Shown: positions 3,897-19,453 of the stretch, piece by piece
Layout: each line of letters begins with the position of its first letter
Position numbering within the stretch: the stretch's first letter is position 1
Origin: Pirellulales bacterium
GTDB taxonomy: Bacteria; Planctomycetota; Planctomycetia; Pirellulales; UBA1268
Assembly (NCBI GenBank): GCA_044337765.1
Contig: JBIIMX010000001.1
Location: 1 to 52,613, forward strand
Length of the DNA: 52,613 bases
Direction: 5' to 3'
Made by a program: the position numbers and the translations under genes
Notes under the pieces: generated by a model
The model's input: only the letters and a program-made list of their open reading frames with translations
Database searches by the model: none
Told to the model about the DNA's origin: nothing

Positions 3897-4901
3897 TCAG
3901 GTCGGCTGTTTGGACAGCCGCTTGATCTTCTCGAGGACGGCCGTTGCGCTTGTTCGCACGTCGCCCACCGGATCACGAGTGAGCTGCTCCACGCTTTCGA
4001 GCAGCTGCTTGGGGGGCGGTTCGTGGGTGGTATCGACGAGCAGCGCGAGCCCCCGCAGGGCATTGACGACCACCAACGCACGCTTGTATCGCCGAGACTG
4101 CGCGGTCATGTCGGCCGCCGCGTCGGGGCCCACGACCACGTCGGGCAGGGCGAGCATTTCCGACAACGTGTCGTAGGATTCCACGCGGCCCTGTCGGGCC
4201 TGCGCGAGCGCCGCGTTGAAACGCACATCCTCGGCCGAGTCGCCGGCCAGTTGCCCGAGCCTTTCGATTGCCGCATCGCCACCGAGCACGCCGAGCGTGA
4301 AGGCGGTGGCCGACCGCAACTGTGCGTCATCGCTCTGCGACGCGGCGACCACTGCAGCGGTCACGCCTGCGGCATCGTCGAATGATCGGCCAGCCACGGT
4401 GAGGTTTGTCGCCAACACGGCCAGTGCCTCGACCGCCGCACGGGCGGTCTGCGGATCGGAGATGGCACGGGCCCGTGCCACGAGTGGTTCGGCGGCGGCA
4501 GGAATGGCGAATTCGCCCAATGCCCGGCAGAGGTAGAGCCGCAGGGTCTGCGACTGTTCGCCAGTACGGCCGCTGGTGGACTCGTCGCCGAGGATGCGGC
4601 CCAGTTCCGTGGCGAGAGATGCGTCGGCTTTGAGGGCTGCGCCGCCCGGGCCGCGCAGGTCGTTGGCAAGATTGAGGGCGGCCTGCCAGCGGCCTTCGTT
4701 GTCGCGGCGGAGCGTTTTCACATAGGCCTGCGGGTCGCTGCCGAGGTGGGCGAGCCAATGGAAGGCCAGCCACACGCAGACGATGATGGCGACGATCACG
4801 CCGGGCACGAGAAACAGCTGCACGAGAAACGCGGCGTTGGGCGGCTCAACGGGCGGCAGCGAGTCGTCTTGGGAGACGGTCCGGCGGGGTGTGTCGGCCA
4901 T
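3897..4901 (-). CDS. Membrane-anchored HEAT/armadillo-like repeat protein
   Basis: 334 aa. N-terminal TM (FLVQLFLVPGVIVAIIVCVWLAFHWLA) followed by repeated helical Ala/Leu-rich units (ARAAVEALAVLA, LRSATAFTLGVLGG, DVRFNAALAQAR, DVRTSATAVLEKI). Convergent with aroE across a 5-nt gap. Confidence 0.7.
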   Translation of the reverse strand: MADTPRRTVSQDDSLPPVEPPNAAFLVQLFLVPGVIVAIIVCVWLAFHWLAHLGSDPQAYVKTLRRDNEGRWQAALNLANDLRGPGGAALKADASLATELGRILGDESTSGRTGEQSQTLRLYLCRALGEFAIPAAAEPLVARARAISDPQTARAAVEALAVLATNLTVAGRSFDDAAGVTAAVVAASQSDDAQLRSATAFTLGVLGGDAAIERLGQLAGDSAEDVRFNAALAQARQGRVESYDTLSEMLALPDVVVGPDAAADMTAQSRRYKRALVVVNALRGLALLVDTTHEPPPKQLLESVEQLTRDPVGDVRTSATAVLEKIKRLSKQPT

Positions 4902-5027
4902 AGGGTATGAATCAGCCGGATGACGCGACGCACGCTGTTTGCGGCGCGAGGGGTGGTGAACTGGCGGAGATCGGCGAGAATCAGCGGTGGGCCCGCATGC
5001 GCTGCGTTGCCCGCTTCAGCAGTCTAG

Positions 5028-5840
5028 GTGGTCACCCCCGTGCGTCAACGTCCCGACCTTCCCGCAGCCCCCCCCCCTGCCCCGGCTTTGGCCGCGGTCT
5101 GGCTCGATGTGTCGTTGCCGACGGTGGAGGAAAATCTCGCGCTCGACGAGGCCCTGCTGGACCTGGCCCACGAGGGGGTGGCCACGGCGGCCTGCGTCCG
5201 CACATGGATGGCGACGGAGCATGCCGTCGTGCTCGGTTCGTCGAGCCGCGTGGAGGAGGAGATCGATCTGCAGGCCTGTTCGGCGGCGGGGGTGCGGGTG
5301 GTGCGGCGGCCGAGCGGCGGGGCGACGGTGGTGCTTGGGCCGGGGTGTTTGATGTGGTCGGTGATCACGCCCCATGCCGCGGGTGCGCCGCCGATCGAGT
5401 CGATCCATGCGGCGATGCTCGAGCCGCTGGCGGCTGCGATCACCGCGGCGTGGGCTCCCTCTGCCGGCCGGCGAGTTGCCCGTCGCGGTACGAGCGATCT
5501 GGCGGTCGTCACCGAACACGACGCGACGGAGCGAAAGGTATCGGGCAATGCGTTGCGGGTGCGGCGGCATGGGGTGCTTTACCATGGCACGCTCCTCGAT
5601 GGCTTCGATCTTGGGCTCGTATCGCGGGTGCTGAGGCATCCTCCCCGCGAGCCTGATTACCGTTCGCAACGTTCGCACGGTGACTTCCTGGCGAATCTTG
5701 GGCTCGGGCATCGGCGGCTCGAGCAGATCGTGCGGGTGGCGTTCAACGCCACGGTGACCGACGGAGTCTGGCCTCGCGACCGCGTGGCCCGGCTCGTTGC
5801 GGAACGCTACGCCGCCAAAGAGTGGACCCATCGGCTCTGA
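5028..5840 (+). CDS. Lipoate-protein ligase / octanoyltransferase family (BPL_LplA_LipB domain)
   Basis: Motifs NLALDEALL, RRPSGGATVVLGPGCLMWSVI and the lysine motif RKVSGNALRVRRHGVLYHGTLL match the LplA/LipB catalytic fold. The listed GTG start at 5028 is uncertain; a downstream start is possible. Confidence 0.75.
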   Translation: MVTPVRQRPDLPAAPPPAPALAAVWLDVSLPTVEENLALDEALLDLAHEGVATAACVRTWMATEHAVVLGSSSRVEEEIDLQACSAAGVRVVRRPSGGATVVLGPGCLMWSVITPHAAGAPPIESIHAAMLEPLAAAITAAWAPSAGRRVARRGTSDLAVVTEHDATERKVSGNALRVRRHGVLYHGTLLDGFDLGLVSRVLRHPPREPDYRSQRSHGDFLANLGLGHRRLEQIVRVAFNATVTDGVWPRDRVARLVAERYAAKEWTHRL

Positions 5841-5850
5841 AGCCGATGGC

Positions 5851-6038
5851 GTGGCAGCGAGTTTCCAACTTGCTGTATCCCATCCCCGTGGCAGCGAGTT
5901 TCCAACTTGCTGTGTCCCATCCCCGTGGCAGCGAGTTTCCAACTTGCTGTGTTTGGCTCTGCACAAGTTGAAAACTTGTGGCCACGGGGCCAAAACCTCC
6001 GGCCACCCCTTCCGTGGCAGCGAGTTTCCAACTTGCTG
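5851..6038. repeat. Array of REP-like hairpin repeats (4 copies of GTGGCAGCGAGTTTCCAACTTGCTG plus 1 variant hairpin)
   Basis: Copies at 5851-5876, 5888-5913, 5925-5950 (37-bp period) and 6014-6038. Each folds as CAGCGAGTT-TCC-AACTTGCTG, a 9-bp stem with one G-T/U pair. The variant GCACAAGTTGAAAACTTGTGGC at 5961-5982 is a perfect hairpin. The array starts immediately downstream of the ligase stop. Confidence 0.9.
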
Positions 6039-6315
6039 AATATGCCACCCTAAACCCCTTGCCCCGCTGTCAATCTAGGCAAGCCGGACCGGCAGTGAGG
6101 GATGGGCGGTCTATCGATTGCAAGGTAATCGCGATCGCCGGGATCGGCCGATCCTCCTAGTGGCGGATGGGATTCGGTGTCGGGATCGCGGCTGGTGGAC
6201 GAAAGAAAACAGTCTTTCGTCAGCGGCCGCTCCTGAGTAGGGTTCCCGACCCGATCGACAGGACGTCGTTCGATAGTTCGCACCAGCGACAGCCAGCAAC
6301 AGGAGGTTGCCTATC

Positions 6316-6585
6316 ATGCGTTTACACATGAATGCCGCGGACGTGCGGCGATTGGTCACGCATTACTTCCTCGATCTCGGCGTGGACAGCGTCGAAGTCG
6401 ATGACATCCAGGAAAACATCCGCATCGACCGCGGCCGTTGCGTAGCTCGCTGCTACCGCGTCGCGGACATGTTCGCGATGTGGATGATCGACGTCGGCGT
6501 GCTGCAGTTCTACGACGCCGACGGCGAAATGTTGCACACCGTGAACCTGTTCACGGAAATGCAGCCGCAGCGGGCCGCAGCCTGA
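6316..6585 (+). CDS. Small hypothetical protein
   Basis: Listed ORF 6307..6585. I use the ATG at 6316, which is preceded by AGGAGG (6301-6306). Balanced, non-shadow composition (MRLHMNAADVRRLVTHYFLDLGVDSVEVDDIQENIRIDRG...). No recognisable domain. Confidence 0.5.
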   Translation: MRLHMNAADVRRLVTHYFLDLGVDSVEVDDIQENIRIDRGRCVARCYRVADMFAMWMIDVGVLQFYDADGEMLHTVNLFTEMQPQRAAA

Positions 6586-6764
6586 TCGCGGTTTCCCGGC
6601 GAAGTTCTCGGGCATCGTCCGACGCAGGTCGTGCGTCGGCGTGCTTGAGTATTCACCCGAGCAAGATCTGACTCATGGCGGTGTGTGGTTTGGGGGATGG
6701 TGCGCGCGGAGGCGAGGCCGCGCCGTGGATCGAGTGACCGTGGTCTGTAGGCCGGGGGGTGGCG

Positions 6765-7826
6765 ATGTCTGACACATTTGATCTGGTGCGATCGCCGCGA
6801 CTGTCGATCGTCATTCCCACGCCGGCAGACACCGCGGCCATGGAAGAAACGCTGGTGAGCGTTTTGGAACACCGGCCGGACGACTGCGAGATCGTGGTCG
6901 CACTTGGCTGCGAGTATGCCGACCCGTGGAACATCCGCGAGGAGGTGCGATTCGTGCAGGCACCGGCGGGTTCGAGCCTGGTGGGCTGCGTGAATTTGGG
7001 GGTGGCGGCGAGCGCGGGCGACGTGGTGCACATTCTGGCTGCGGGCTGGCGGGCCACGGAGGGCTGGACCGATCTGCCGGTGGAGCGGTTTGAGGATGAC
7101 GACGTGGGAGCTGTGGTGCCGCTGGGCATCGCGGCCGACGATCGTGACCATGTTGTGTCGGCGGGCGTGCGATGTGCCGTCGGGGGGCGGCGGATCGATG
7201 TGGCCTCCGACGGCAGGTGGCGGCGCGTGAAGGTGGCGGCATGCCCGCCCGCGGGTGCGCCGGTGCCGCAGGGGCCGGTGCTCGAGACAGGTTTCTGGCG
7301 GTCGGACGTTCTTGAGTTGGCGGGCCGTGGGTTCACGACGGTGTGTGGGGATAAGGCGGCCGACGCTGACATGGCGATCACGCTGTCGCGGAGTGGCTGT
7401 CGGGTGGTGGTGGAGCCGCATTCGTTGGTGATCGCGCCGGCGGCGACGGCGGGCAGGGCTCGCACGCGTTCGTTCGCGGCTGGTCTGCATGCGGAGCGGC
7501 TCTTTTGGCGGAGCGTGGCGGGTTCATCGATCCTGCCCGCGCTGGTGATGCATGTCGTGGAGATCGTGCGGCATGCGGTGGCGCGAGCGCCGTTGGGCAC
7601 GCTTCCGATGCTTGTGGGCCGGCTGGTGGCCGTGCTGCAGTTTGGGTCGTATGTGTCCCGTTATTCGCAGCTGCGGCATGTGATTGCTCGGGCGGCTGGG
7701 CAGAGCGGTGTGGGAGTGGAGGCCGAGGAGCAGCCGTCGATTCGGATCGACGGGCGGCATGAAGGTTTTGGTCGTCCGCGGCAGCGTGGGTCGCGGGAGT
7801 CGGTGCCGCTTCGGAAGTCGGCCTGA
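6765..7826 (+). CDS. Glycosyltransferase family 2-like protein
   Basis: N-terminal PRLSIVIPTPADTAAMEETLVSVLEH resembles the GT2 SIVIPT motif. Hydrophobic C-terminal region. ATG at 6765 (listed GTG at 6759). Confidence 0.6.
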   Translation: MSDTFDLVRSPRLSIVIPTPADTAAMEETLVSVLEHRPDDCEIVVALGCEYADPWNIREEVRFVQAPAGSSLVGCVNLGVAASAGDVVHILAAGWRATEGWTDLPVERFEDDDVGAVVPLGIAADDRDHVVSAGVRCAVGGRRIDVASDGRWRRVKVAACPPAGAPVPQGPVLETGFWRSDVLELAGRGFTTVCGDKAADADMAITLSRSGCRVVVEPHSLVIAPAATAGRARTRSFAAGLHAERLFWRSVAGSSILPALVMHVVEIVRHAVARAPLGTLPMLVGRLVAVLQFGSYVSRYSQLRHVIARAAGQSGVGVEAEEQPSIRIDGRHEGFGRPRQRGSRESVPLRKSA

Positions 7827-8038
7827 GCGGGGCACGGCGTGTGCGGTGGGCCGCCTGTGCGGTGGGCAGAGCGCCGTTTGCCGAATGGGCCCAGAGTAGG
7901 TTGGGCAGCGGGCTGGATGGTGCTTGGATCGACTAGCCTGGGGCTTTGCAGCCAGTGGCGGGCGGGGTTTTCACCGGCAGACGCGGCGATCCTGTTATCG
8001 CGGGCCCGGGGCTGATAGAATTCGGGTGGTTGAGTCCT

Positions 8039-8112
8039 GCCCTCGTAGCTCAATTGGATAGAGCGTCAGCCTCCGAAGTTGAAGGTTACAGGTTCGATCC
8101 CTGTCGAGGGTA
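8039..8112 (+). tRNA. tRNA-Arg (anticodon CCG)
   Basis: Hand-folded 74-nt cloverleaf: acceptor GCCCTCG/CGAGGGT (one G-U pair), D arm GCTC-AATTGGATA-GAGC, anticodon arm TCAGC-CTCCGAA-GTTGA (U33, CCG at 34-36, A37), variable loop AGGTT, T arm ACAGG-TTCGATC-CCTGT, discriminator A. CCA is not encoded. Confidence 0.9.
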
Positions 8113-9376
8113 TTGGGTTTGTTGGTCTAGCTCGCGAAGTACGCGTTTTCCCGCGTGTTTCGTGAAGGTCGGACGGCGTCGGTCTGCCGCTGTCGGCTCC
8201 TGACTGTGCCGGGTAGTGTGCCGGGTTGGAGGCGGCTCGGTCGAAGTCGGCGTCGGTCGTCGAGAGGTAGTGGCTCCGAGCCACGGCGGCCGTATGGCCG
8301 AGCCAAGCGAAGACGACGTGAGCCGGGAACGTCTCCAAGAGCTCGATCTCCCGGCTGGCCCTGAGGTTCACGAAGAGCTTCGGCCACTTCGGCACGCTGG
8401 CACGCTCCAGCACTTGCTCGGCATACCGCCGGAGGTTCCGGCCGCCGCGAGCTCGTGGCACGACGTAGACGGCTCCCGGCTCGGCCGCGTCGAAGGCCGC
8501 CTCAAGGTATGGCCGGAGCTCGGCGAAGATCGGCACGATCCGCTCCTCGTGGCCGGCGAGGTGCGACTTCTTCGGCACGCGTACCGTGATTCTGTTTCTC
8601 TCCCAGTTCACGTCGCTCCACTTGAGCTCTTCAAGCTCGCTCGGAATCCGTAGGCCGGCGTATCGAGCGAAGGCGAAGATCAGTCTCCAGTCGTGATTCG
8701 GGCAGGCCGCCAGCACGGCCTCAATCGTCTCACGCTTCACGAAGTGCTTGCGGCTCGGGTTGGCCTGAGAGCCGCACCTAACCTCCTCAAACGGATTGCG
8801 GTCGATCACGCGACGCCGGACGGCGGCCTTGAAGAACTGCCGAGCACGTCGAAGATCGACCGACGCTGACGCTGGAGCGAAGCCCTTGCGGGACTTCGTC
8901 GGAGCCAGGAGCCACGCCTTGTAGTCGTCGGCGTCTCCTTCGTGGATCGTGTCGATCCGACGCTCCTTGCCGAAGAACTCCTCCAGCAGTCGTCGAGCTC
9001 GGCCGTAGTTCAAGGCCGTCATGCGCTTTTGCTGGCCGAGCGTGCTGAAGTAGTGCTCCAAGAAGGAGCCGACCGTCCACTCGATCGCGGTGATCTTCTC
9101 GCGTGGCTCTACGAGGCCTACTTTGGCCAGCTTGTCGTGGATCACGTCGCCGATCTCGGAGAGCCAGCCGGCCGTCTGGGAGTCGATCGGGAGGCCGGCG
9201 ATCTTCGCGGCCAGGAGCGACTCGATCTTGAGCTTCACGCTCTCGGCGAGCTTCTTCGGCAGCTTGCCGAGCCGGATCGTCTGCCGCTTGCCAGTCGGAT
9301 CGACGAAGAGCACGCGGTACGTCGTCGTCGTCGAGCCGTCGTCGAGCTTGAACTTTTCAGTGCTGAGCGTGGCCAC
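8066..9376 (-). CDS. int: Tyrosine recombinase / phage integrase
   Basis: 436 aa. Catalytic-domain motifs ARYAGLRIPSELEELKW, HLAGHEERIVPI, LRASREIELL and WLGHTAAVARSHYL (the R..H-x-x-R..H/W..Y pattern). The last 47 nt of the ORF overlap the tRNA-Arg 3' half. Confidence 0.9.
   Translation of the reverse strand: MATLSTEKFKLDDGSTTTTYRVLFVDPTGKRQTIRLGKLPKKLAESVKLKIESLLAAKIAGLPIDSQTAGWLSEIGDVIHDKLAKVGLVEPREKITAIEWTVGSFLEHYFSTLGQQKRMTALNYGRARRLLEEFFGKERRIDTIHEGDADDYKAWLLAPTKSRKGFAPASASVDLRRARQFFKAAVRRRVIDRNPFEEVRCGSQANPSRKHFVKRETIEAVLAACPNHDWRLIFAFARYAGLRIPSELEELKWSDVNWERNRITVRVPKKSHLAGHEERIVPIFAELRPYLEAAFDAAEPGAVYVVPRARGGRNLRRYAEQVLERASVPKWPKLFVNLRASREIELLETFPAHVVFAWLGHTAAVARSHYLSTTDADFDRAASNPAHYPAQSGADSGRPTPSDLHETRGKTRTSRARPTNPIPSTGIEPVTFNFGG
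8093..8116 (+). repeat. att core repeat (tRNA-proximal copy)
   Basis: Exact 24-nt match to 15742-15765. Covers the T-loop to the 3' end of tRNA-Arg plus 4 nt. Confidence 0.85.
8206..8228 (+). repeat. Tandem 11-mer GTGCCGGGTAG / GTGCCGGGTTG (candidate integrase arm-type sites, left end)
   Basis: Two copies with a 12-bp period, 90 bp inside the left att core and within the int 3' coding region. The same 11-mer pair occurs at 15680-15702. Confidence 0.4.
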
Positions 9377-9377
9377 G

Positions 9378-9596
9378 TTAGCTCCTCTTCTTGGGTTTGG
9401 GTTGCTTCTTCTTCACGAACACGAGGCCGAGCTCCAGGCCGATCCTGTCGAGCGAGTCGAAGGAGAGACCCGGCCGCTGCCGGAGAACGAACTTGGAGAG
9501 CGAGCACTCGCTGACGCCGGTTCTCTTGGCAAGCTCGTATCGAGTGATCCCGGCCTTCTCGATCGCGTCTCGGAGTTGCTCGCTCAACGGTTTCAC
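9378..9596 (-). CDS. XRE/Cro-type helix-turn-helix regulator
   Basis: 72 aa. ITRYELAKRTGVSECSLSKFV is a classic HTH. Its stop is 1 nt from the int start. Confidence 0.7.
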   Translation of the reverse strand: MKPLSEQLRDAIEKAGITRYELAKRTGVSECSLSKFVLRQRPGLSFDSLDRIGLELGLVFVKKKQPKPKKRS

Positions 9597-9623
9597 AGGG
9601 TACTGTCCTCTTCGTCTAGCAGT

Positions 9624-10193
9624 CTACCGATCCTTGAGACGCTCCGCCGGAACCCAGCGGACGCGAGCCGACCTTGCGGCCTCCAGCACGTCCGGCGGGA
9701 GCTTCAGTCGCTCGGCCACGAGCTCGACGGCCTGCCGCCAGAGCGTCTCCGCGTCCGGCCTCTTGGCCAGGAGGGACAGTATCGCCGGCTTGTGAGCCGC
9801 GACGCGAGCCTTGAGAGCCGCGTCCACGGCAGACGGTGGCGAGAGCCGTAGCCGGCCGTCCACGGCCTCCACGGCCACGCCGGCGGCCGCCAGGTCGTCG
9901 AGCACTTGGTCGGCGTCCACGAGCTCTACGAGCACGTCGCCGTGGCACGGCAGCGGTTTGCACCAGCACGCGAGCCGCCGGCCTCGTAGCTCGTGGAGAC
10001 GCCGCAGGAGCTCCGGCTGGCCGAGGACGTGCTGACGAAACTTCTCGATCACGTCGTCCCTCGTGCCGTCCACGTCCACGACGTACGGATTGGCGAAGGC
10101 CGACTCCGCGAGTCCTCGCCGATTGTTCTTGCGTCCGACGTAGACGGCGTCGCCGAGCTCGTCGCATTTGAGATTCACAACGCGGCCGCTCAT
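9624..10193 (-). CDS. DUF4326 domain protein
   Basis: N-terminal half matches the DUF4326 pattern: VYVGR...ANPY...DDVIEKFRQHVLGQPELLRRLHELRGRRLACWCKPLPCHGDVLVELV. Confidence 0.7.
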   Translation of the reverse strand: MSGRVVNLKCDELGDAVYVGRKNNRRGLAESAFANPYVVDVDGTRDDVIEKFRQHVLGQPELLRRLHELRGRRLACWCKPLPCHGDVLVELVDADQVLDDLAAAGVAVEAVDGRLRLSPPSAVDAALKARVAAHKPAILSLLAKRPDAETLWRQAVELVAERLKLPPDVLEAARSARVRWVPAERLKDR

Positions 10194-12628
10194 AGTTCGA
10201 GGTACTCCTCGTCGGCCATGGCCTGCCGCTCCGCTCGACTGTCGGCGTCAGCGTCAGCGGAACCCAGTTTCGCGGCCTGCTTCGGAGGTTGTGCTGACGC
10301 TGCCTGCCCGATGAGCACGAAGAGCCGTGTAGGCCGACCTCCCTCGCCGCTCGTCGGCTTGTCGATCCATAAGCCACGGCCGGCGTCCACGAGCCTCTGG
10401 AGAGCTTCTCCTGCCGCGTTGGCGTCGGCGATCGACCGGACTCCAGCAATCACGTCGCGGACGGCCACGCTGCCGCCGTGAGCGATCACGAAGGCCGCCA
10501 GCCGGTCGTCGGCCTGACGGGTCGCTCGCTCGGCCTCACTCTCGGCGAGCAACGCGTACACGCGACGCGTCTCGTGCTTGAACCAGCCGGTGAGCTCGAT
10601 CGCGGCAGCCATGCTACCGGCGTCGATCTCGCCGGCGACGACGTGCTCTCCAGCCGCGAGCCTGGCCTCGTGGACGACCAGTGCCAACCGGCCAGCGGTC
10701 TCCTCAAGCTTGCTCCACGCGGCCGCCAGGTCGCCGGTGAGCTCGTTCGTCTCGACGTTGTGCTCGTCGTGAAACTCCACGAAGAGCGTCTCGGCGTCGC
10801 GGTTGAGCCTGACGATCCTCGACTCCTGTCGGCCTGCCTTGAGCTCGTGCTCCAGGCTGTAGAGGTTGTCGAGCACGCGGACGAAGTCGCCTCTCGTCGT
10901 CCACCCGATCGTGTCGGTTGTCCACCGCTTCGGTCTGCGTGGTGGAGCCGCCAGTAGCAGTCGAGCCAGGAGTCCGCTCTCTCGCCGTTCAATGCCGAGA
11001 GCACGTCGGAGCACGCCTGGCTGGATCGTGCCAGTCAGCCAGACGGCGGCCTGCCGAATGTGGACCGAGCGACCAGTCCGCCTAGAGACGTTGTGAGAGC
11101 GGCCGCTGTAGGCCTTGAGAAAGAGAGCTTCGTCGGCGGCTGGCGTGCCGTTGTACCGACCCATACTGCCAAGGAGGCCGGAGAACTCGTCGGTGGCCAC
11201 GATTAGGCCTCGCGGGTTGTCGGCCAGTGCCGAGACAAGAGCCTCGCTTGTGGCGTCCTCGACGAGCACGCGACGTTGGATCGGCTCACGCGGTCGCTTC
11301 GGTGGCGGATCGTCGCTCTTCTTCGCGTGCCGCCAGGTCGAGCGTGCTTTCTCGTAGTCCTCGACCTCGACCTCGTAGGTCTGCCGCTCGGCCGCGTACT
11401 CCTCGTAGAGCCGATCCTCACGCTCGCGGACGTGATCGAGCGACACGTCGGCGGCTGGCGACTTCTGAGAGCCGCTCTCCGCGACCGTCACTGGCCAGAC
11501 GATCGGCAGAGCACTCCAGCCTGGCTTGAGCTCCACGCGTCGCGTCGTGCCGACCGCCGATCCCAGTACGGCCAGGAGCGGTAGGCTCACGAAGGCCTCG
11601 TCGCAACCGATCGCACGAGCGGCCTCTTCGATCAGCGTCGAGACGGCCTTCGGCAGAGCCGGCGTCGGGAACGGCCGCCAGGCCTCGACCGACGAGCTCG
11701 TGGAGGACGTGCTCGGCGTAGCCGGCGTCGTGCTGGCCGTGGCGGCCTTCGGCTTGAGCGGCTCGGTCTCGACAGCCTGCCGCTCGATCTTCTCGCGTAG
11801 AGCCTTGAGCTCCTCCTCGTCTCGGCAGGCCTCGTACAAGTCCGCCACGTCGCCTCCTGGCTCCAGGCCGTCGAGCTCGACGACGCGGACCGTCGCTGGA
11901 GGATCGAGCTTGTGGAGGATCGTGGCCACGTCTGCCGCGTACTGGCGGCCGGCGGCGTCGTTGTCCGGCAGGATCACGACCTCACGGCCGGCGAGCGGCG
12001 ACCAGTCGGTTTGTCTGGCCGCGTTGCTGCCACCGGAGCTCGTCGTGGAAGCAAGGCCGAGGCCGCCTTCAAGGAACAACGCGTCGCAGCACTTCTCGCC
12101 CTCGACGACGTAGACGCGATCGGCGTCCTCAAGAAACTCGACTCCGAGGAGCGGCCGTGGCTCGGTCATATGCGTTAGCCGCCAGCCGTCAGCGTGGCGG
12201 CTGAGCGGACGTATCACCTTCTCGCCGGCCGGCCGATCCCAGCGGAGCACGCGGCCGACTGGCTTGATCGTGACTGGATCGCGGTACTCCCACGAGCGAG
12301 TCGGTTTGCCGAGCGTTCGCTCGTAGGCCTTCTGAGCCTCGTTGGCGGTCGGATACGCCTTGCTTGTCGCCTTGCTCGACGAGCTCTTCTTGGCTGGCGT
12401 GGAAGTGGCGTCAGCGTCGAAAAGATCACGCTCTTCCAGGCCGAGAGCCGCGACGATCTTCTTGTGATCGCATCCGGCGTGGCACTTGAGGAGTACGCGG
12501 CCGTCGTCGCCGACGCCGATCGACAGACTGGCTTGCCTGTCCTCGTGAGCCGGACAACGTGCCGACCAGCCGCTCGAGGTTTTCTTGACGCTGTCGAACT
12601 TCGTCAGGAGCTTGGTAGCAGCACTCAT
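10190..12628 (-). CDS. Primase (Zn-finger + Toprim) fused to a DUF3987-type helicase-like domain
   Basis: 812 aa. Zn-binding SARCPAHEDRQASLSI...LLKCHAGCD. Toprim motifs VYVVEGEKCCDAL and VVILPDNDAAGRQYA. The large C-terminal region is typical of P4/satellite-type replication proteins. Confidence 0.8.
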   Translation of the reverse strand: MSAATKLLTKFDSVKKTSSGWSARCPAHEDRQASLSIGVGDDGRVLLKCHAGCDHKKIVAALGLEERDLFDADATSTPAKKSSSSKATSKAYPTANEAQKAYERTLGKPTRSWEYRDPVTIKPVGRVLRWDRPAGEKVIRPLSRHADGWRLTHMTEPRPLLGVEFLEDADRVYVVEGEKCCDALFLEGGLGLASTTSSGGSNAARQTDWSPLAGREVVILPDNDAAGRQYAADVATILHKLDPPATVRVVELDGLEPGGDVADLYEACRDEEELKALREKIERQAVETEPLKPKAATASTTPATPSTSSTSSSVEAWRPFPTPALPKAVSTLIEEAARAIGCDEAFVSLPLLAVLGSAVGTTRRVELKPGWSALPIVWPVTVAESGSQKSPAADVSLDHVREREDRLYEEYAAERQTYEVEVEDYEKARSTWRHAKKSDDPPPKRPREPIQRRVLVEDATSEALVSALADNPRGLIVATDEFSGLLGSMGRYNGTPAADEALFLKAYSGRSHNVSRRTGRSVHIRQAAVWLTGTIQPGVLRRALGIERRESGLLARLLLAAPPRRPKRWTTDTIGWTTRGDFVRVLDNLYSLEHELKAGRQESRIVRLNRDAETLFVEFHDEHNVETNELTGDLAAAWSKLEETAGRLALVVHEARLAAGEHVVAGEIDAGSMAAAIELTGWFKHETRRVYALLAESEAERATRQADDRLAAFVIAHGGSVAVRDVIAGVRSIADANAAGEALQRLVDAGRGLWIDKPTSGEGGRPTRLFVLIGQAASAQPPKQAAKLGSADADADSRAERQAMADEEYLEL

Positions 12629-12852
12629 GCTGTCACCTCCTGACCGACGCGGCGGCTCTTGAGAAAATCCTCCAAGGCCTTGAGCTCGTAGAGCCTGACG
12701 CGGCCTACGAGTACGCTCATGATCTCGTTGGACTTCGTGAGTCGCTCCAACGTTTTGATGCTGACGCCGATTGACGCGGCGGCCTGACGTGGCCGAAGAG
12801 CGAGCGTGGCCGCGATCGGCTCACGGTTGCGGTAGAATGAGTGCTGAGCCAT
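12625..12852 (-). CDS. Excisionase/MerR-type HTH (HTH_17-like) protein
   Basis: ALRPRQAAASIGVSIKTLERLTKSNEIMSVLVGRVRLYELKALEDFL. I use the internal ATG at 12852, preceded by GGAGG, rather than the listed start at 12927. Confidence 0.6.
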   Translation of the reverse strand: MAQHSFYRNREPIAATLALRPRQAAASIGVSIKTLERLTKSNEIMSVLVGRVRLYELKALEDFLKSRRVGQEVTA

Positions 12853-12923
12853 ACGTCCTCCTGTGACGTGGTGGTTTCGCTCGGAGTCGCTGGTTCCCGC
12901 CAGCGGCTCTTTGCGTTGGTGGA

Positions 12924-13193
12924 TCACTTGGTCGGCGTGGCAACGTGCTCACGCTGAGAGAGCCAGGCCTGGACGGCGGACGCCGGATACCTCACGAGCC
13001 GGCCGAGCTTCACGAAGCGAGGCCCGTTAGCCGGAGCGTGAGGCTGGCTCTTTGAGCGGAACCTCCACTGAGAGAGCGTCGTCACCGGAATGTCGGAGAG
13101 CTCGCTGAGCTCACGCGGACTGAGATGCTTTTCAAGAAGCACGAGGTTGGTCTCCTGAGTAAGCACGGTCGATTCACAAACGACGACCGGCAT
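12924..13193 (-). CDS. AlpA/excisionase-family HTH protein
   Basis: 89 aa. LSPRELSELSDIPVTTLSQWRF...PRFVKLGRLVRYPASAVQAWL matches the HTH_17/AlpA pattern. Confidence 0.65.
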   Translation of the reverse strand: MPVVVCESTVLTQETNLVLLEKHLSPRELSELSDIPVTTLSQWRFRSKSQPHAPANGPRFVKLGRLVRYPASAVQAWLSQREHVATPTK

Positions 13194-13361
13194 ATCTCTG
13201 GGTTACAGGAAAGACCCCGGACCCTTGCAGATAGGGTCAAAGCGGCGAGTGCCAGCGGAGGAGGAAAAAGCTTGGCAATTCGCGGGTAAAACAGGCTTTT
13301 ACGGGTCGATCGACGCCGAAAAAAATCTGTTGTGTACACAACAAGAGTGTACTGGCGACCA

Positions 13362-13832
13362 CTACGCGAACATGAGCCGGTCGAGCTCGTCGAGCTCGGG
13401 ATCGGCTGGCTCCTTGAGCACGCCGGCCGACTTGAGTCTGGCGTGGCTCGCGGGATCAAGGCCGAGAGCGGAGCCGTACCGCAGGAGCGTTGCTCGCACT
13501 CCCTGGAGTGCCTTTGCGGCCGGGTTGGGAAGTCTGCCGTGAGGAGTCGAGACGACGTGGCCTTCGGAGAGCACTTGGTCGGTGAGCCGATCGCACTCGT
13601 CGGCCATGCGGACGTAGTTCGTGAAGCACTCCCGCGTCTCGCGTCGGAGCCTGCCGTCCTCGACGAGCAACGGAACGAGCTCTTTCCAGCGTCGAAGAGC
13701 TCCTGGCGTCAGGCCTGCCGGCGGCTTGAGGAGCTGTTTGGCTTCGTCAGGCTTGGCGGCTTTCTTGGCTTGCTCGGCGAGCCACGCTCCGCCTAAGAGC
13801 TTCGACTTGCTGAGCGGTCCTCGACGACCCAT
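13362..13832 (-). CDS. Phage terminase small subunit, P27 family-like
   Basis: 156 aa. N-terminal GRRGPLSKSKLLGG..., then P..L.P.A...W..LVP.L...G.L...D, then RATLLRYGSALGLDPASHARL. These match the P27-family TerS architecture as I recall it. Confidence 0.6.
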   Translation of the reverse strand: MGRRGPLSKSKLLGGAWLAEQAKKAAKPDEAKQLLKPPAGLTPGALRRWKELVPLLVEDGRLRRETRECFTNYVRMADECDRLTDQVLSEGHVVSTPHGRLPNPAAKALQGVRATLLRYGSALGLDPASHARLKSAGVLKEPADPELDELDRLMFA

Positions 13833-13953
13833 GTGATCGGCCTCCGTATCTGGGAACTACCCTCATGCGAAAACCCGCAGCCGTACACTTCGATGAGACA
13901 TCCGTGGTCCGACGGGTTGAAAATCGGACGTGATTTCGACGTGCCCGGTTAGG

Positions 13954-14637
13954 TCAACCTGCCGCGAGCTCGCGGAGTCGGCCTGAGAGTCTCTTGGCTT
14001 CCGTGGTCCTCCAGGCCGAGCTCCTCGCTTCACGTCTCGCCGCTTCGATCGCCTGCCTGTCGCCGTGAGGAGCGAAGTACGCGATCGCTGAGCGGTACGC
14101 CGGACGCTGGCCTTGAGGAACCAGAGCGACGTGATCGAGCCGAGCCGAGCGGATCACGCGAACGACCTCGCGGCCGACTGTCCGGTGCTCGACCTTGCTC
14201 GTGGTGAAACCGACCGAGAGGCCGATACCACTCCGACCGGCAGCGGCGACGAGCATCCGAGCCAGCGGCTCGTCGGCCAGGTCGGCCTCAACGAGAAGGC
14301 CGAGCTCGTGGTCGATCGAGAGCCTGAGAGTGCCGTCCGCCGTGGTGGCGAGTTGTCCGCCGTGGTGGCGAGACTCAAGCCGGACAGGCTTCTCCTTGGT
14401 GATCGCGGCCAGAGCGTCGTGCCACGCGGCCACGTCGAAGGTCTCCGGCAACTCCCGGCGATCCTGAGCACAACGGACTGGCACGCTGACGCCAGGAGCC
14501 GCGACGCCGCACAGCACGCTGGCGTACGTTGGCGATAGCGGCTGAGCCACTCCACGCCGCACCCAGTCGGGAGCGTTGCGGAGCTTCACGGCAACGGCCG
14601 CCGGATCGAGAATCGCACAAGCTCGCTCGATAATCAC
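13954..14637 (-). CDS. HK97-family prohead protease-like (peptidase U35/S78-like) protein
   Basis: The pattern RLESRHHGGQLATTADGTLRLSIDHELGLLVEADL...GIGLSVGF...ARLDHVALVPQGQRPAYRSA follows the prohead-protease consensus H...G...D..GL.V...L....G.S.GF....L.EVSLV..PA. Confidence 0.5.
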   Translation of the reverse strand: MIIERACAILDPAAVAVKLRNAPDWVRRGVAQPLSPTYASVLCGVAAPGVSVPVRCAQDRRELPETFDVAAWHDALAAITKEKPVRLESRHHGGQLATTADGTLRLSIDHELGLLVEADLADEPLARMLVAAAGRSGIGLSVGFTTSKVEHRTVGREVVRVIRSARLDHVALVPQGQRPAYRSAIAYFAPHGDRQAIEAARREARSSAWRTTEAKRLSGRLRELAAG

Positions 14638-15188
14638 AGCGTGGCCTCCACGCTCGCGGCCTTGCCGATCCGACGAGACCGCTCCTCAATCAAGTCGTCC
14701 GCGACGTTGGCGGCCGGCTTGAAGAGTCGCGGGTTGTCTGCCGCGACGCGGTTCGCAGACTGAGCAATGCCGACCTCCGAAGTCATCAAGGCCGTGATCC
14801 GCCGGAAGAGGAGCGTGATTCGCTCGACCTCCTTCTTGGCCGCGTCGAGTGCTGCGTTGAGCTCTGGAGTCTGAGCCTCAAGAGCCTCTCGCTCGGCTCG
14901 CTTCATGGCGGTCTTATCGACCAGCCGCTTGTGCTCGACGAGAGCGGCCACGTCGTCGGCCAGGGAGTTGTGCGGCAGGCTAAGCCGCTCGGCGATCGCG
15001 GCGAGCTCGGCCAGAGTGGCACCGTCCGGCTCGCGGCCGCCGGCGATCGCTCGACAGATTTCACCCCATCGGGTTAGGTCGCCGGCCAAGGCCTCTCGTC
15101 GGAGCTCCTGGGTACGTTGTGACGCGTCGGCGAGAGCCGTCCGCCAGTCTCCAGTCGGTTTCTCGATCGTCTCACTTCGCCGTGGCAT
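14634..15188 (-). CDS. Hypothetical coiled-coil protein
   Basis: I use the internal ATG at 15188 of listed ORF 14634..15407 (MPRRSETIEKPTGDWRTAL...). The upstream part is Arg/Ser-rich and overlaps the next gene. It overlaps the downstream gene by 4 nt. Confidence 0.5.
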   Translation of the reverse strand: MPRRSETIEKPTGDWRTALADASQRTQELRREALAGDLTRWGEICRAIAGGREPDGATLAELAAIAERLSLPHNSLADDVAALVEHKRLVDKTAMKRAEREALEAQTPELNAALDAAKKEVERITLLFRRITALMTSEVGIAQSANRVAADNPRLFKPAANVADDLIEERSRRIGKAASVEATL

Positions 15189-15432
15189 AGCGTGCTCCTT
15201 GCGGGTTGGCTTTTCGGTCGGTCGCTTCGTGGACAACAAGTCCGCGAGCGGTACGAGCGGAGCGACTGATCGCTCCCTTTTTTGCAGCGGCGGCCAGGTG
15301 GCCGACGATCGCGTTGACGCCGACCTCGAGGCCGTCCGCGATCTCGCGGAGGCTTGGCGGGTAGCCGTGCTTGTCGGCGTACCGCCGACAGAAGAGCACC
15401 ACTTCACTCTGGCGTGGCGTGAGTCGATCCAT
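15172..15432 (-). CDS. Stand-alone LexA-type winged-helix DNA-binding domain protein (candidate island repressor)
   Basis: MDRLTPRQSEVVLFCRRYADKHGYPPSLREIADGLEVGVNAIVGHLAAAAKKGAISR matches the LexA N-terminal domain consensus (LT.RQ.EVL.F......GYPPS.REI...L......V..HL..L..KG.I.R). No S24 peptidase domain follows. Start taken at ATG 15432. Confidence 0.65.
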   Translation of the reverse strand: MDRLTPRQSEVVLFCRRYADKHGYPPSLREIADGLEVGVNAIVGHLAAAAKKGAISRSARTARGLVVHEATDRKANPQGARYATAK

Positions 15433-15679
15433 ATGGCCTCCTGGCGTGTTCATACTTGCAGGGTACGAACGGCCACCGGAGCCTTGCAGAAGCGAGACCG
15501 CGTCAGCACAACCCCAGCGGATCGCGGTCGCCACGAGGTTGTGCTGACGCTGACGCGATCACGTCGCCGGAGAGCGAAGGCCTTGAGCGAGTGCCAGGAG
15601 AGCCGACCGCTCCTCCGGCGTTAGACCGGCGAGCACGCGAGCGAGCTCGACCAAGTCCGCCGTCTCGTTGGCCGACACT

Positions 15680-15702
15680 GTGCCGGGTAGCGTGCCGGGT
15701 AG
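15680..15702 (+). repeat. Tandem 11-mer GTGCCGGGTAG x2 (candidate integrase arm-type sites, right end)
   Basis: Two exact copies with a 12-bp period, 40 bp inside the right att core, in the same orientation as the left pair. Confidence 0.4.
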
Positions 15703-15741
15703 ATCACCAGAGTCGGCTTTCTCGCGGCGTACGGAAGAAAA

Positions 15742-15765
15742 TTCGATCCCTGTCGAGGGTATTGG
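15742..15765 (+). repeat. att core repeat (distal copy, tRNA 3' fragment only)
   Basis: Exact 24-nt match to 8093-8116. No 5' tRNA half is present upstream, so this is not a tRNA gene. Confidence 0.85.
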
Positions 15766-15924: not shown

Positions 15925-16923
15925 TCATTGCGACGGTCTGCGATCAAACGTGGTCACCATAGTCAACGGCTGGCCTACCGTCGCCACAGGGCGAAATCGC
16001 TTGACTTCTCCATCGACCAATACCGCGACATCGACTGGCATGCGGGCCTGCCCTGACCAGCTCCTGAAGTGATGGATCGCAACGGTGTAGCGACCGTACG
16101 GCGCCAGACCTTTGGCCCAGAAAACATTCTCGACCGGGGTTCGTGTGAGCATGCCGTGATTGGCATTGGCGTCGACATCAAGAAAGCCCCCGCACAGCCC
16201 CCTTCTGTTCATCCAGCTGATCATCGAATACGAACCACCGGCTAGGGGCTCGACCATGACATGGACATCGATGTCATCGACGCTGTCCCACGCAATTGAT
16301 ATCTGCACATCTCCTGTCTTCGCTCCAGCAGCAGCAAGCCTTCGGCCCATCTCTCCGCCGAAACCACCCCCAACGCCCCCTTCCCTCTCCGACTGTCCCC
16401 CACGACCGACAGTCGCTGCAATGCGCTTGGGCATATTGGCAGGCCGTGCCGGCCGAGCAGCGTGTGGCACTTCCCCGACCAGGTCTGAGAAATCGGGTTC
16501 TACCGGCGGCGCATCGGCCACAAGTGAAACAAGCTGCACATCGCCCACGTTGACGGCGTCAGTCTCGGCAAGCAGTCGGTCTGAAATGATTTCTGCCTGC
16601 TCGACGTTGCTACTCGCAGCTTTGTCCGTCGGCATCAGCAACTCGTCCGACTGCAGATCCACCTCCCCTTGAGCGGTGCGGCTGAAATCAATCGCCAATC
16701 TCACCGGCACCGTGCGAGTGTCGGGGCCAATCAGCGTGAGGGCGAGTGCGAGCAGCAGGACCGTATGCACGATGATGCTCTGGACAATACCGGTGCGATA
16801 CAGATCGGCGACAAGAGCGTCGAGTGCATTGAAGCCTCGCCGGGCCGTGCCCACGCGAGGTGCCGCAGATGCCGCATCCCACTGCACCTTTTGCTCGAAC
16901 TTCTTCGAGCGGATGCTATTCAT
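15925..16923 (-). CDS. Membrane-anchored hypothetical protein with beta-rich C-terminal domain
   Basis: I use the internal ATG at 16923 (MNSIRSKKFEQK...). One TM (IVQSIIVHTVLLLALALTLI). The C-terminal ISIAWDSVDDIDVHVMVEP...GGFLDVDANANHG...VENVFWAKGLAPYGRYTVAIHHF is reminiscent of DUF2135/YfaP-type domains, but the match is weak. Confidence 0.55.
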   Translation of the reverse strand: MNSIRSKKFEQKVQWDAASAAPRVGTARRGFNALDALVADLYRTGIVQSIIVHTVLLLALALTLIGPDTRTVPVRLAIDFSRTAQGEVDLQSDELLMPTDKAASSNVEQAEIISDRLLAETDAVNVGDVQLVSLVADAPPVEPDFSDLVGEVPHAARPARPANMPKRIAATVGRGGQSEREGGVGGGFGGEMGRRLAAAGAKTGDVQISIAWDSVDDIDVHVMVEPLAGGSYSMISWMNRRGLCGGFLDVDANANHGMLTRTPVENVFWAKGLAPYGRYTVAIHHFRSWSGQARMPVDVAVLVDGEVKRFRPVATVGQPLTMVTTFDRRPSQ

Positions 16924-17295
16924 GCCCAGAGTCCTCGAAATATCCGCTATCGGGCAATACGGCCTGGAAACATCGATGTCTCGACAATACAGCGAGTCAT
17001 GCGCGGAGTAATTCGCCGACCCCGACGAGGCGGCACAGTCCACACGCGCCCCTACTAGGAAAGGCGTAATTCATGTCACCGAGGGGCAAAACCCATGACC
17101 AAGAGGACCGACAGCCGCCAAATCTCGGGGTTCGTCGTGTCTCTGTCCCGAGAATGCCGCTAAAAACGACATCTCGCTGTATTACGGGGTTTCTGCACCG
17201 CAGCTGAGGAGTCGCTCAGAAGCCGCCCGAATCCGCACGAGGGGATACACTCCCTGTTCGAAAGAGTTCGCGCTCACCAAAAAGCAGGCATTCAT

Positions 17296-18348
17296 ATGGG
17301 CGTTCCCAGCAGATACGGCTGTTCCATCGCATTCTTGACTGGCAGTCTCTTCGTTTCGGTCCCAGTCGCGGAGCAAGCGACGCACGCAGGCGAGGTCTCG
17401 GCTGTCGAACCAGCCACCGCTCCGGGCGTACAGTCATCGCGAACCGGGGGGGCCGGTGGAACAACGACGGTTGGGCACCCTCAGCCATCGTTGCTGCTGC
17501 TGGCAACCAATTACCGGTCGATCCGTCTCGTAGGAGACGATGAGAGCTTCGAGCGAGTCGAGAACGTTCTCGCTCGGCCCTACGAGTTCGACTTCACTGA
17601 ATGTCCCCTGCGTGACGTGGCGAGCGTCGTTTCCGATCGCACGGGCCTTCTGGTGCGTTTTAACCACCGTGCACTGGAGGATATGGGGCTCGACATCGAT
17701 ACCACCGTAGTGACCTCGGGGGCGGGCAAGCTGCCACTGAAGGATGGCCTCGGCACGATTCTGGATGCTCTCGACTTAGCTCTCCTTGTGGAGGACACGG
17801 GTATCGCGATTTCCTCACGCGACGCAGCTGACGCATCGCTCGAGCCTCGCTTCTACCCAATAGCGGCCACGGTCGATGCCGATCAGTTGATCACCGTGAT
17901 CCAAGACAGCGTGTCGCCTTTGTCGTGGGATGTCGTTGGAAACCAAGGCCATGCATGTGTCATCTCCGAAAACATCGGGCGCGGACTCGTTATTCGCCAA
18001 TGCCAGCGGGTTCACGATGACGTCGAGCGATTCCTCGCAAACTTGCAAAGGGCGGCATGGTATACAGACCCAGCGTCTCCGGAGGCCGCACCCATAAAGC
18101 GGGTCTATCGCATCGAACAGGGGGATACCCGACGTGAACTGGGAGAGAAGCTCGTAGGATTGTGCAACGAGGCACTTGCTCATGATCGAGATCCAGCGGC
18201 GACGGTCACGGTCGTGGGACCATGTGTCATCGTCAGTTCTCGGTCGCGTGTCTTCCACGTCATGGCCGGGGAACTGATCGGCTCTATTTCCGGAGTACCG
18301 CTTCATACACCAGACGCCGCGTCCGGAATGGGTGGAGGAAGCTTTTAG
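17296..18348 (+). CDS. Exported hypothetical protein
   Basis: 350 aa with a hydrophobic N-terminus (CSIAFLTGSLFVSVPVAEQA). No confident domain. The C-terminus abuts a transposase fragment and may be altered by it. Confidence 0.5.
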   Translation: MGVPSRYGCSIAFLTGSLFVSVPVAEQATHAGEVSAVEPATAPGVQSSRTGGAGGTTTVGHPQPSLLLLATNYRSIRLVGDDESFERVENVLARPYEFDFTECPLRDVASVVSDRTGLLVRFNHRALEDMGLDIDTTVVTSGAGKLPLKDGLGTILDALDLALLVEDTGIAISSRDAADASLEPRFYPIAATVDADQLITVIQDSVSPLSWDVVGNQGHACVISENIGRGLVIRQCQRVHDDVERFLANLQRAAWYTDPASPEAAPIKRVYRIEQGDTRRELGEKLVGLCNEALAHDRDPAATVTVVGPCVIVSSRSRVFHVMAGELIGSISGVPLHTPDAASGMGGGSF

Positions 18349-18601
18349 CGCGGGAGGAGAACACCTCGGTGGGCTCAACGACGATCGCATCGGGCGAGCA
18401 CTCGCCGCGTTGTTCGCAGCCGACGTCCCAAGCCTTGTGCTCTCGGTCATGACCCATGTCGTCCGGGAGTTCCGGGTGTCTCTCGACGAGCTTCATAACG
18501 ACTCCACATCGATCTCCTTTCACGGCGATTACACCGAGGCTCCCACCGCGCGACGGGGAGTTTTTGGCTTGCGTCCCTCTAAACGGCACCACTCGCAGTA
18601 G
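18332..18601 (+). pseudogene. Fragment of an IS1634/IS4-like transposase (N-terminal piece only)
   Basis: LNDDRIGRALAALFAADVPSLVLSVMTHVVREFRVSLDELHNDSTSISFHGDY matches the conserved N-terminal region of IS1634-family DDE transposases as I recall it. The ORF stops after 89 aa and no DDE domain follows. Confidence 0.55.
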
Positions 18602-18853
18602 GAGACTCTGGGCACTCGCCGCAGCCGGTGGCCCGTTGAGCCGTGGCTTTCTGAACCGGCGGCCGAGTGCGGCCGCTTGGGCCGCGCCGCGCTTCATGCG
18701 GCGGAGCATCGTGACTGACGACGGTACCCACGCAGGCGTAGTCCACGAAGGTCAACGGCTCCAGTAGGCGCGAGTAGGTATCCCCCCGATACTGAGGTGG
18801 CGTCAGACACGATGCCCAGGTGACACAAAGTATTCAACAAAGGTGACTCTGAG

Positions 18854-19453
18854 GTGAATAAACGAACGCTCTTCACGGCATGTGCTTTCATGGTCGTGTC
18901 CTTGGTGGCATCAGGAGTGGCCCGCTCGCAGCCCGCTGCACCGCCGGAGGTGGTGGGCACCTATCTGTTGACGATTCTGGAGCAAGGTACGAAGACACTG
19001 AAGCATGCCGTTTGTGAAATTAACGGTAACGAGTTGCTGTTAGACGACAAACCGTGGGGGACTTGGCAGGCCGTCTCCACTACTAAAATTGAAATCACCG
19101 CAAAGGACCAACAAAACGGGTTAGTGAAGCTATCGAGATTGCCCGCAGGGAATCTATTGGGTCAGCAAAAAAGTCAAGCGAGCAACGCGAAATGGACGCT
19201 GGAGAGAATTTATGTCGTCTCGAAGTGGAATCACCAGGCTGGCAATGGACAGCCGTTCGAATTGTCACTCTGGTCGAACGGGCGTGCGCAGAAGCCTGAC
19301 AGTCGCATACAGTGGAAAATAGTTCCTGCGGCTCGGGAACTCATTCTTCAATGGCCGGAGGCTACCGATCGATGCAAGTTGTCGGCTGATGGTCGTCGCT
19401 ATGAGGGACGAAACGAGCATGGAATGCTGATCACGGGCAAGCTGATTGAGTAA
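18854..19453 (+). CDS. Exported hypothetical protein
   Basis: 199 aa. Signal peptide MNKRTLFTACAFMVVSLVASGVARSQP. The DNA is visibly more A/T-rich than its surroundings. Confidence 0.6.
   Translation: MNKRTLFTACAFMVVSLVASGVARSQPAAPPEVVGTYLLTILEQGTKTLKHAVCEINGNELLLDDKPWGTWQAVSTTKIEITAKDQQNGLVKLSRLPAGNLLGQQKSQASNAKWTLERIYVVSKWNHQAGNGQPFELSLWSNGRAQKPDSRIQWKIVPAARELILQWPEATDRCKLSADGRRYEGRNEHGMLITGKLIE

Follow-up and report, generated by a model that had tools for sequence, protein, structure and literature searches.

A compact, excising integrative element at tRNA-Arg(CCG) of a freshwater Pirellulales-type planctomycete resembles phage-inducible chromosomal islands

A 7,649-bp element inserted at a tRNA-Arg(CCG) gene was analyzed within a 52,613-nt window, the whole stretch of DNA under study, from contig JBIIMX010000001.1 of the Pirellulales bacterium assembly GCA_044337765.1, a metagenome-assembled genome (MAG) of 3.7 Mb in 560 contigs that is 84% complete. 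We interpret the element as an intact and currently mobile phage satellite of an uncultured freshwater Pirellulales-type planctomycete, similar to the phage-inducible chromosomal islands (PICIs). This reading, in which we infer both encapsidation and the need for a helper phage, is given a probability of about 0.68. That the element actively excises is almost certain, and it entered the 3' end of tRNA-Arg(CCG) through recombination by a tyrosine integrase.

The sole tRNA gene detected in the window by ARAGORN is tRNA-Arg(CCG), located at 8038-8113 on the plus strand. As the original prediction had it, the element is bounded by an exact 24-nt direct repeat, TTCGATCCCTGTCGAGGGTATTGG, one copy of which is the 3' part of the tRNA gene (attL core, 8093-8116) and the other of which lies at the distal end (attR core, 15742-15765), so that the 3' end of the integration target is rebuilt by the att copy of the element. 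A search for an empty tRNA-Arg site had also been suggested, and a DNA search across 40 related genomes located one. On contig G009:C179, from the same genus, the tRNA gene is intact and is directly followed by the right flank of the window at 93% identity, and in the alignment with the window the junction sits precisely on the att repeat. Because this junction falls exactly at the repeat, the 7,649 bp represent a true insertion. The rebuilt tRNA 3' end, the empty site and the circular attP form described below are all the marks of an island inserted into a tRNA gene by a tyrosine integrase. Tandem repeats that may serve as arm sites for the integrase were identified in the left arm (GTGCCGGGTAG-type, 8206-8228) and in the right arm (GTGCCGGGTAG, 15680-15702).

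Excised forms, which had been proposed as a further check, were found as circular attP-form contigs for three variants of the element, and both integrated and circular forms are already present in public lake time-series metagenomes (circle sources: runs SRR30952541, SRR30952543, SRR30952544 and SRR30952584; JGI samples 3300042560 and 3300034012). Variant A is represented by a 7,741-bp contig in each of four Logan assemblies, with terminal overlaps of 30 nt, which we take to be k-1 for a Logan k of 31. After trimming, the four contigs proved to be the same 7,711-bp circle opened at different points, with 0 mismatches. Over its whole length, this circle shares 86% nucleotide identity with the window element and is colinear with it across the attP junction predicted from attL and attR, passing from int through the att core to the gene for a LexA-type protein. 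Variant B consists of JGI contigs L085 and L086, which come from two samples and are rotations of one 7,580-bp circle. This circle has 99.9% identity to a copy that occupies tRNA-Arg(CCG) in integrated form on contigs of 75 kb and 28 kb. The left flank of these integrated copies is syntenic with the window, and 26 nt of the circle are common to both alignment blocks, which marks the att core at either end of the copy in its integrated state. In variant C (approximately 7.5 kb; NCBI, ENA and Logan assemblies), the LexA-type gene likewise comes after int, and the ends of one contig wrap around, with a redundancy of approximately 205 nt.

The ten-gene architecture, 7.5-7.7 kb in length, is common to many metagenomes at 62-93% protein identity. 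Close homologues of the element's protease (62-93% identity) reside on contigs of which the longest are mostly 7.6-8.5 kb. The possibility that homologous elements occur only as parts of full-length prophages was not borne out, as the close relatives are the same compact ten-gene element. A search of the GTDB species genomes with the protease alignment detected no other copies.

The ten genes between the repeats are co-directional, and all lie on the minus strand. Each of the gene families named in the original prediction was matched in Pfam and PHROG scans, and one further gene, encoding a protein of 184 aa, was added. The tyrosine integrase gene, int (8066-9376), adjoins attL, and its open reading frame (ORF) ends inside the tRNA gene, as predicted. 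The integrated isoform of 436 aa contains PF00589 and PF13102 (SAM_5) and matches phrog_1 (E 1e-30). Next to it are the genes for a 72-aa XRE/Cro-type helix-turn-helix (HTH) regulator (9378-9596; PF13443, HTH_26, E 2e-5; phrog_4583, repressor) and for a DUF4326 protein with a TubC_N-like C-terminal part (9624-10193; PF14216, E 2e-22), the latter of which is kept in all variants of the element. An 812-aa replication protein (10190-12628) combines a zinc-ribbon/Toprim primase with a DUF3987 helicase-like domain (PF13148, E 2e-69; Toprim_3; phrog_6088, primase; phrog_2373, helicase). It is followed by a gene for an HTH_17 protein of the MerR/excisionase/AlpA type (12625-12927; PF12728; TIGR01764 excisionase domain), the true start of which likely yields 75 aa (12625-12852), relatives being called at 75-76 aa, and by a gene for a second HTH_17-type protein of 89 aa (12924-13193; PF12728, E 3e-4).

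The remaining four genes include those that point to phages. The small terminase subunit (TerS) is a P27-family protein of 156 aa (13362-13832) that matches phrog_83 and PF05119 (Terminase_4; E 2.6e-15, 57 bits with a cut-off of 24.7) and scores slightly below the cut-off for TIGR01558 (41.7, cut-off 45.6); it is the sole Terminase_4 protein in the MAG. An HK97-type prohead serine protease of 227 aa is encoded at 13954-14637 (PF04586, Peptidase_S78, E 5e-7, 30.3 bits with a cut-off of 21; TIGR01543). The added gene (14634-15188) encodes an all-helical protein without a family, a candidate scaffold-like partner of the protease, and the last gene (15172-15432) encodes 86 aa that comprise a LexA winged-helix DNA-binding domain alone (PF01726, E 5e-16) and may be the master repressor. 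This LexA-type protein lacks the S24 peptidase domain, and TIGR00498 was matched at positions 1-75 of 203 only. The candidate regulators of the element are the two HTH_17 proteins of the MerR superfamily, the XRE-type HTH protein and the LexA-type protein, with no match to the Phage_AlpA family reported.

The claim that structural genes are missing was upheld. Pfam and PHROG scans of the element detected no large terminase (TerL), portal, capsid, tail, holin or head-tail connector gene, no phage structural domain was present in the flanking ORFs scanned at 2647-7826 and 15925-24984, and a PF05065 search of the whole MAG found no HK97 capsid gene. A scan of the element for defence systems gave only weak generic HTH or Toprim matches, and no library scan of its proteins matched a relaxase, an oriT protein or conjugation genes.

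To assess gene integrity, the ten genes were compared with those of two circles, variants A and B. No stops were found, and the ratio of nonsynonymous to synonymous substitutions (dN/dS) ranged from 0.17 to 0.62. The lowest values were those of TerS (0.18-0.22), the protease, the 184-aa helical protein (0.20-0.30) and the LexA-type protein. Purifying selection maintains each of the ten genes.

The protease was examined further by alignment and structure prediction. It carries approximately 60 extra N-terminal residues and a long C-terminal helix. Glu65, His91, Gly113 and Ser141 (the last within GLSVGF) are invariant in 38 homologues with identities down to 25%, a set that includes a phage protease encoded next to TerL and portal genes. 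The AF2 model of the protease (pLDDT 88) gave 160 matches in BFVD at E<=1e-3, and among the 50 matches listed, those that are named are prohead proteases or protease-capsid fusions. A search of solved structures with the protease sequence gave no match; the best PDB fold match of the model was Epstein-Barr virus (EBV) assemblin, whose fold is shared with phage prohead proteases. Alignment and model thus identify a true prohead protease with an assemblin-like fold and a predicted catalytic His/Ser pair. The gene for the 184-aa protein is situated between those for the LexA-type protein and the protease, with its stop overlapping the protease start by 4 nt. The AF2 model of this protein (pLDDT 88) consists of helices only, one of which is 77 residues long.

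The attP site lies within the reading frame of int, in which the att core is read as PIPSTGIE. Consequently, Int of the window element has 436 aa in the chromosome and 488 aa in the circle, and in circular relatives it has 486-499 aa. In the chromosomal form, the last 16 codons are derived from attL and the tRNA gene and add eight residues, PVTFNFGG, past the att core. The C-terminal 60 residues of the circular form alone are encoded at the opposite end of the element (15559-15741, minus strand); the frame is continuous across att, and this is also the terminal peptide of Int in the circles. Within the last 34 codons of this tail, the peptide ...DLxELARVLxGLxxEERxALLxLAxGLRxPAT is conserved in four variants, and the proportion of synonymous differences (pS, 0.29-0.42) exceeds that of nonsynonymous differences (pN, 0.06-0.16), which indicates that the tail is translated. 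Because attP is inside int, integration swaps this conserved C-terminal tail. A comparable arrangement is known from myxophage Mx8, in which attP lies within int and integration gives the gene a new 3' end, with a changed Int C-terminus and altered integrase behaviour (PMC6070905). The IntP/IntX pair of Mx8 shares the attP-in-int layout and the C-terminal swap on integration (PMC6070905). Unlike the element, Mx8 is a complete temperate phage, and for Mx8 it is known how the exchanged tail affects activity, whereas the swap described here is read from sequence.

The two parts of the element have different distributions in other genomes. Homologues of the primase were present in 81 of the 201 genomes sampled from the order; several adjoin a tRNA gene, an integrase gene and an HTH_17 gene, and some have att repeats of 45-57 nt. 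TerS is encoded near a primase homologue in few genomes only (G113:C10, G067:C695 and G028:C186). The element thus joins a common integrase-primase backbone to a phage-derived packaging and capsid module.

Distant homologues of the protease (28-35% identity) sit in other small islands that have integrases and replicases of their own, the replicase being a 718-aa protein or a DnaB_C helicase. In these islands, the order is TerS, a small ORF, the protease, an ORF of approximately 110 aa, defence-type cargo (HSDR_N, T5orf172, Mrr/SNF2 or AbiEi/AbiEii) and host genes. A small ORF always precedes the protease, and a P27-type TerS is encoded beside the pair in most islands, although it was not identified in L183. 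No TerL, portal or capsid gene was found at any island locus with the small ORF and the protease, and one distant island carries a gene similar to HK97 gp10. The 184-aa protein and the small ORFs that precede the protease in the distant modules have no detectable homology and are positional counterparts only. For the other small ORFs near the protease, the 110-aa ORF gave only weak HTH_7 and HNH hints, and the 113-aa ORFs matched no informative family. One such island of approximately 16 kb (L181/L182, from the ENA GROS21 metagenome) combines an integrase, DUF1580 and a DnaB_C helicase with TerS, an ORF of 161 aa, the protease and an ORF of 110 aa, followed by a 1,099-aa Mrr/SNF2 helicase-nuclease and then by an AbiEii/AbiEi pair. 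Congener G009, which has the empty site, contains three P27-type Terminase_4 loci, G009:C206 (L057), G009:C57 (L056) and G009:C110 (L188), of which two have the pair of small ORF and protease. These loci may be further satellite-like islands, since the genome lacks an HK97 capsid gene. The sole homologue found beside TerL and portal genes is a distant 318-aa phage protease, encoded in the order TerS-TerL-portal-protease. The gene order of the element differs from this phage order, with the protease before TerS and no gap for TerL or portal.

These results suggest a model for the life cycle of the element. In the resting state, the LexA-type protein, possibly with the XRE-type protein, would repress the single co-directional operon, and its probable binding site is an inverted repeat of 21 nt (15493-15557) that lies upstream of the gene encoding it; this repeat was found in a repeat search and is a candidate operator or iteron. 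One half of this inverted repeat (15493-15513) pairs with a copy of the 18-nt sequence GAGGTTGTGCTGACGCTG, which occurs in two exact copies, upstream of the LexA-type gene (15535-15552) and at the 3' end of the primase gene (10285-10302), and in a weaker third copy at the 5' end of the primase gene (12576-12593); the inverted repeat is partly conserved in the L068 circle. The GAGGTTGTGCTGACGCTG repeats may be operators or replication iterons. Repression would be lifted upon infection by, or induction of, a candidate HK97-like cos or pac phage. The circle would then be excised by Int and one of the excisionase-type HTH_17 proteins and replicated by the Toprim-DUF3987 protein. The P27 TerS would pair with the large terminase of the helper and steer packaging to element DNA, and the prohead protease and its helical partner would enter or process helper procapsids, resulting either in capsids adapted to a small genome or in interference with the helper. 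The 7.6-kb monomers may be packed as concatemers, as in marine satellites. Excision restores the 488-aa Int with its conserved tail, and integration replaces this tail with PVTFNFGG. A bolder proposal, which we hold only tentatively and regard as possible rather than probable, is that the element belongs to a new satellite family native to Planctomycetota, with a minimal hijacking kit of TerS, an active prohead protease and a long-helix partner. In such a family, capsid maturation would be taken over by the protease and scaffold-like pair instead of a capsid-size factor, and the Int isoforms would toggle between the episomal and chromosomal states.

Several observations weigh against the interpretation of the element as a phage satellite. 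No helper phage was identified in the MAG, in genomes of the genus or the order, in GenBank phages or in IMG/VR, and IMG/VR viral contigs yielded no relatives of the element. The original prediction had suggested that a helper might be traced by comparing TerS and the protease with phages, which did not succeed: the closest TerS proteins have 27-29% identity in GenBank phages and 36% identity in the sampled Pirellulales genomes, and the protease had no match in GenBank phages. An HK97 capsid gene was present in only one of the 20 genomes of the genus, a scarcity that, with the lack of such a gene in the MAG, counts in favor of the satellite reading. The genome in question, G015, contains the only phage-like morphogenesis cluster in this set (G015:C48, L187, 2697-13600), in which a 497-aa terminase-like protein, a 386-aa portal-like protein, a 173-aa protease and a 396-aa HK97 capsid protein are followed by head-tail and tail genes. 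No Terminase_4 match was found in G015, and no similarity could be detected between the 173-aa protease of this cluster and the protease of the element. A sister variant (L170-L174; NCBI, ENA and Logan contigs) has a 113-aa ORF of unknown function at the position of TerS, which indicates that TerS is dispensable to the backbone. The scaffold-like role of the 184-aa protein is a guess, given that this protein matched no family and no fold, and a circular contig is a sign of excision, or at least of a head-to-tail junction, rather than of packaging. Because no helper and no IMG/VR relative were found and one variant lacks TerS, encapsidation and helper dependence stand at a lower level of certainty than excision.

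Some of these observations would suit an autonomous, plasmid-like integrative element that uses its phage-derived genes (TerS, protease and helical protein) mainly to sabotage infecting phages, as a defence island, instead of for its own packaging, and that is transferred by routes such as vesicles, transformation or mobilisation. Such an element would form circles and carry a full replication module, as this one does; larger relatives with the same module carry Mrr, AbiE, T5orf172 and HSDR_N; and neither the variant without TerS nor the lack of an IMG/VR match would be surprising. However, TerS has no known role besides the recognition of DNA for packaging, and the interference exerted by satellites is known to accompany their own packaging (PMC10085698). 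The library scans, moreover, matched none of the mobilisation functions that such transfer could employ, whether relaxase, oriT protein or conjugation gene. We consider a plasmid-like element unlikely, and favor the PICI-like satellite.

The circular contigs themselves might be artefacts in which tandem integrated copies were assembled into circles without true excision, since short-read assemblers close a circle at any head-to-tail junction. This is very improbable, as two JGI samples, several NCBI/ENA assemblies and four Logan runs independently yielded the closed unit, for three variants and with a junction that is exactly the att core, and integrated copies on long contigs are single rather than tandem; G009 in addition provides the empty site. 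The original prediction had offered as its alternative a decayed prophage, which would have lost the genes for the large terminase, the portal, the capsid, the tail and lysis. TerS and the prohead protease are phage genes, and an island at a tRNA gene with an integrase is what such a remnant could leave behind. Decay is nevertheless difficult to reconcile with the absence of pseudogenes, dN/dS values of 0.17-0.62, excision as circles, an architecture of ten genes conserved at 62-93% protein identity and a gene order unlike that of phages. The decayed prophage is hardly credible on this evidence and was rejected.

The surroundings of the element provided additional information. The flanking lipoate-ligase gene matched freshwater lake MAGs labelled Pirellulales, Planctomycetia or Planctomycetaceae, and by sequence comparison the planctomycete assignment of the host holds. 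Downstream of this gene, at approximately 5850-6040 of the window, short repeats match many other contigs, both in this MAG and in congeners, at 74-87% identity and constitute a dispersed REP-like family. In G009, which has the empty site, the right flank belongs to the chromosome. Its ORF at 15925-17043 (minus strand, 372 aa) has a C-terminal domain that matches phrog_1735 (function unknown, E 6e-15). This gene is poorly conserved across the rest of the genus. It is present at the G009 empty site and is therefore outside the element. Further species of the genus (L061, G017:C197; L062, G018:C62; L060, G016:C285) have a different integrase, with 48-51% identity, at this tRNA-Arg(CCG), and an HTH_17 gene adjoins it in G017 and G018; these contigs are too short to show the cargo. 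The site is therefore a hotspot that related islands share. The MAG also contains a second stretch resembling an integrase gene (contig C438:113-656), which has 69% DNA identity to window positions 8234-8774.

Phage satellites influence defence, gene transfer and the dynamics between phages and their hosts, and those known are nearly all from Proteobacteria, Firmicutes and a few marine lineages. To our knowledge, the phages of Planctomycetota are barely known. Full-text literature searches found no paper that links satellites with Planctomycetes or Planctomycetota, in agreement with the original prediction that such elements are essentially undescribed in this phylum; the element would thus be without a prior report there. 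It makes testable whether HK97-like phages attack uncultured planktonic planctomycetes, whether a terminase subunit and a maturation protease are all that a satellite needs to parasitise a capsid, and whether an integration-dependent change of the Int tail controls the direction of recombination. The element family may also serve these bacteria as a vehicle of defence genes, since larger relatives carry restriction-like and abortive-infection genes beside the same module.

Among known systems, the element most closely follows the PICIs, which are defined by a functional core of integrase, regulator (alpA, merR or stl), primase-replicase, capsid morphogenesis and TerS genes, with tail, holin, portal and head-tail connector genes forbidden and a serine protease as an occasional gene (PMC10085698). 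More than 99.9% of detected PICIs are in Proteobacteria or Firmicutes (PMC10085698). Consistent with this functional plan, which was part of the original prediction, the element has an integrase at one end, a primase-replicase and a small terminase, and neither it nor its flanks contain forbidden genes. As in PICIs such as the Staphylococcus aureus pathogenicity islands (SaPIs) and those of the EcCICFT073 type, a site-specific integrase, a candidate regulator and AlpA/excisionase-type HTH proteins, a primase-replicase, its own TerS and one or more capsid-related genes are combined in a compact unit that forms a circle on excision and lacks large terminase, portal, capsid, tail and lysis genes. 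PICIs are usually approximately 10-15 kb, and the element, at 7.65 kb, is half that size; PICIs have a divergent int/regulator region with operon arms, and the genes of the element are all co-directional. The capsid genes of PICIs are of the CpmA/B type or the Ppi/Rpp type. No PICI-type capsid-morphogenesis family was matched in the element, in which the capsid module instead consists of the S78 prohead protease and the helical protein. It further differs from PICIs in its Toprim-DUF3987 replicase, in a candidate repressor that is a LexA DNA-binding domain only, in its occurrence in Planctomycetota and in that the link to a helper phage is here read from genes alone.

The capsid-forming PICIs (cfPICIs) have the same left arm of integrase, regulator and primase and share TerS and a prohead serine protease with the element, but they encode their own capsid, portal, head-tail adaptor, connector and large terminase (PMC10085698), none of which is present in the element. 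P4-like satellites are similar in having an integrase at a tRNA gene, an AlpA-type HTH protein and a large primase-helicase protein. The P4 part of the original prediction was nonetheless not sustained, as Pfam and PHROG scans of the ten element proteins matched no Psu, Sid, Delta or Eps family. P4 is not known to have a terminase or a protease, and its integrase has a P4-type arm-binding domain, the N-terminal domain of the element integrase being SAM_5. Judged by its gene content, the element is neither a cfPICI nor a P4-like satellite.

A further likeness is to the marine VEIMEs (integrative mobile elements encapsidated in virions), described as aquatic satellites of <5 to 16.8 kb that are packed as concatemers (Eppley et al. 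2022, PMC9618062). In that paper, prohead-type serine proteases with HNH are described for some groups and small terminases for others, and the hosts named include Pelagibacter, other Alphaproteobacteria, Prochlorococcus and Verrucomicrobia; the string 'Planctomyc' is absent from its main text (PMC9618062). VEIMEs are defined by concatemers within virus particles, whereas the present element is known from assembled DNA and is likened to them by description. As described there, VEIMEs and the element have in common that they are small integrative elements of aquatic free-living bacteria, with an integrase and replication genes and without capsid genes.

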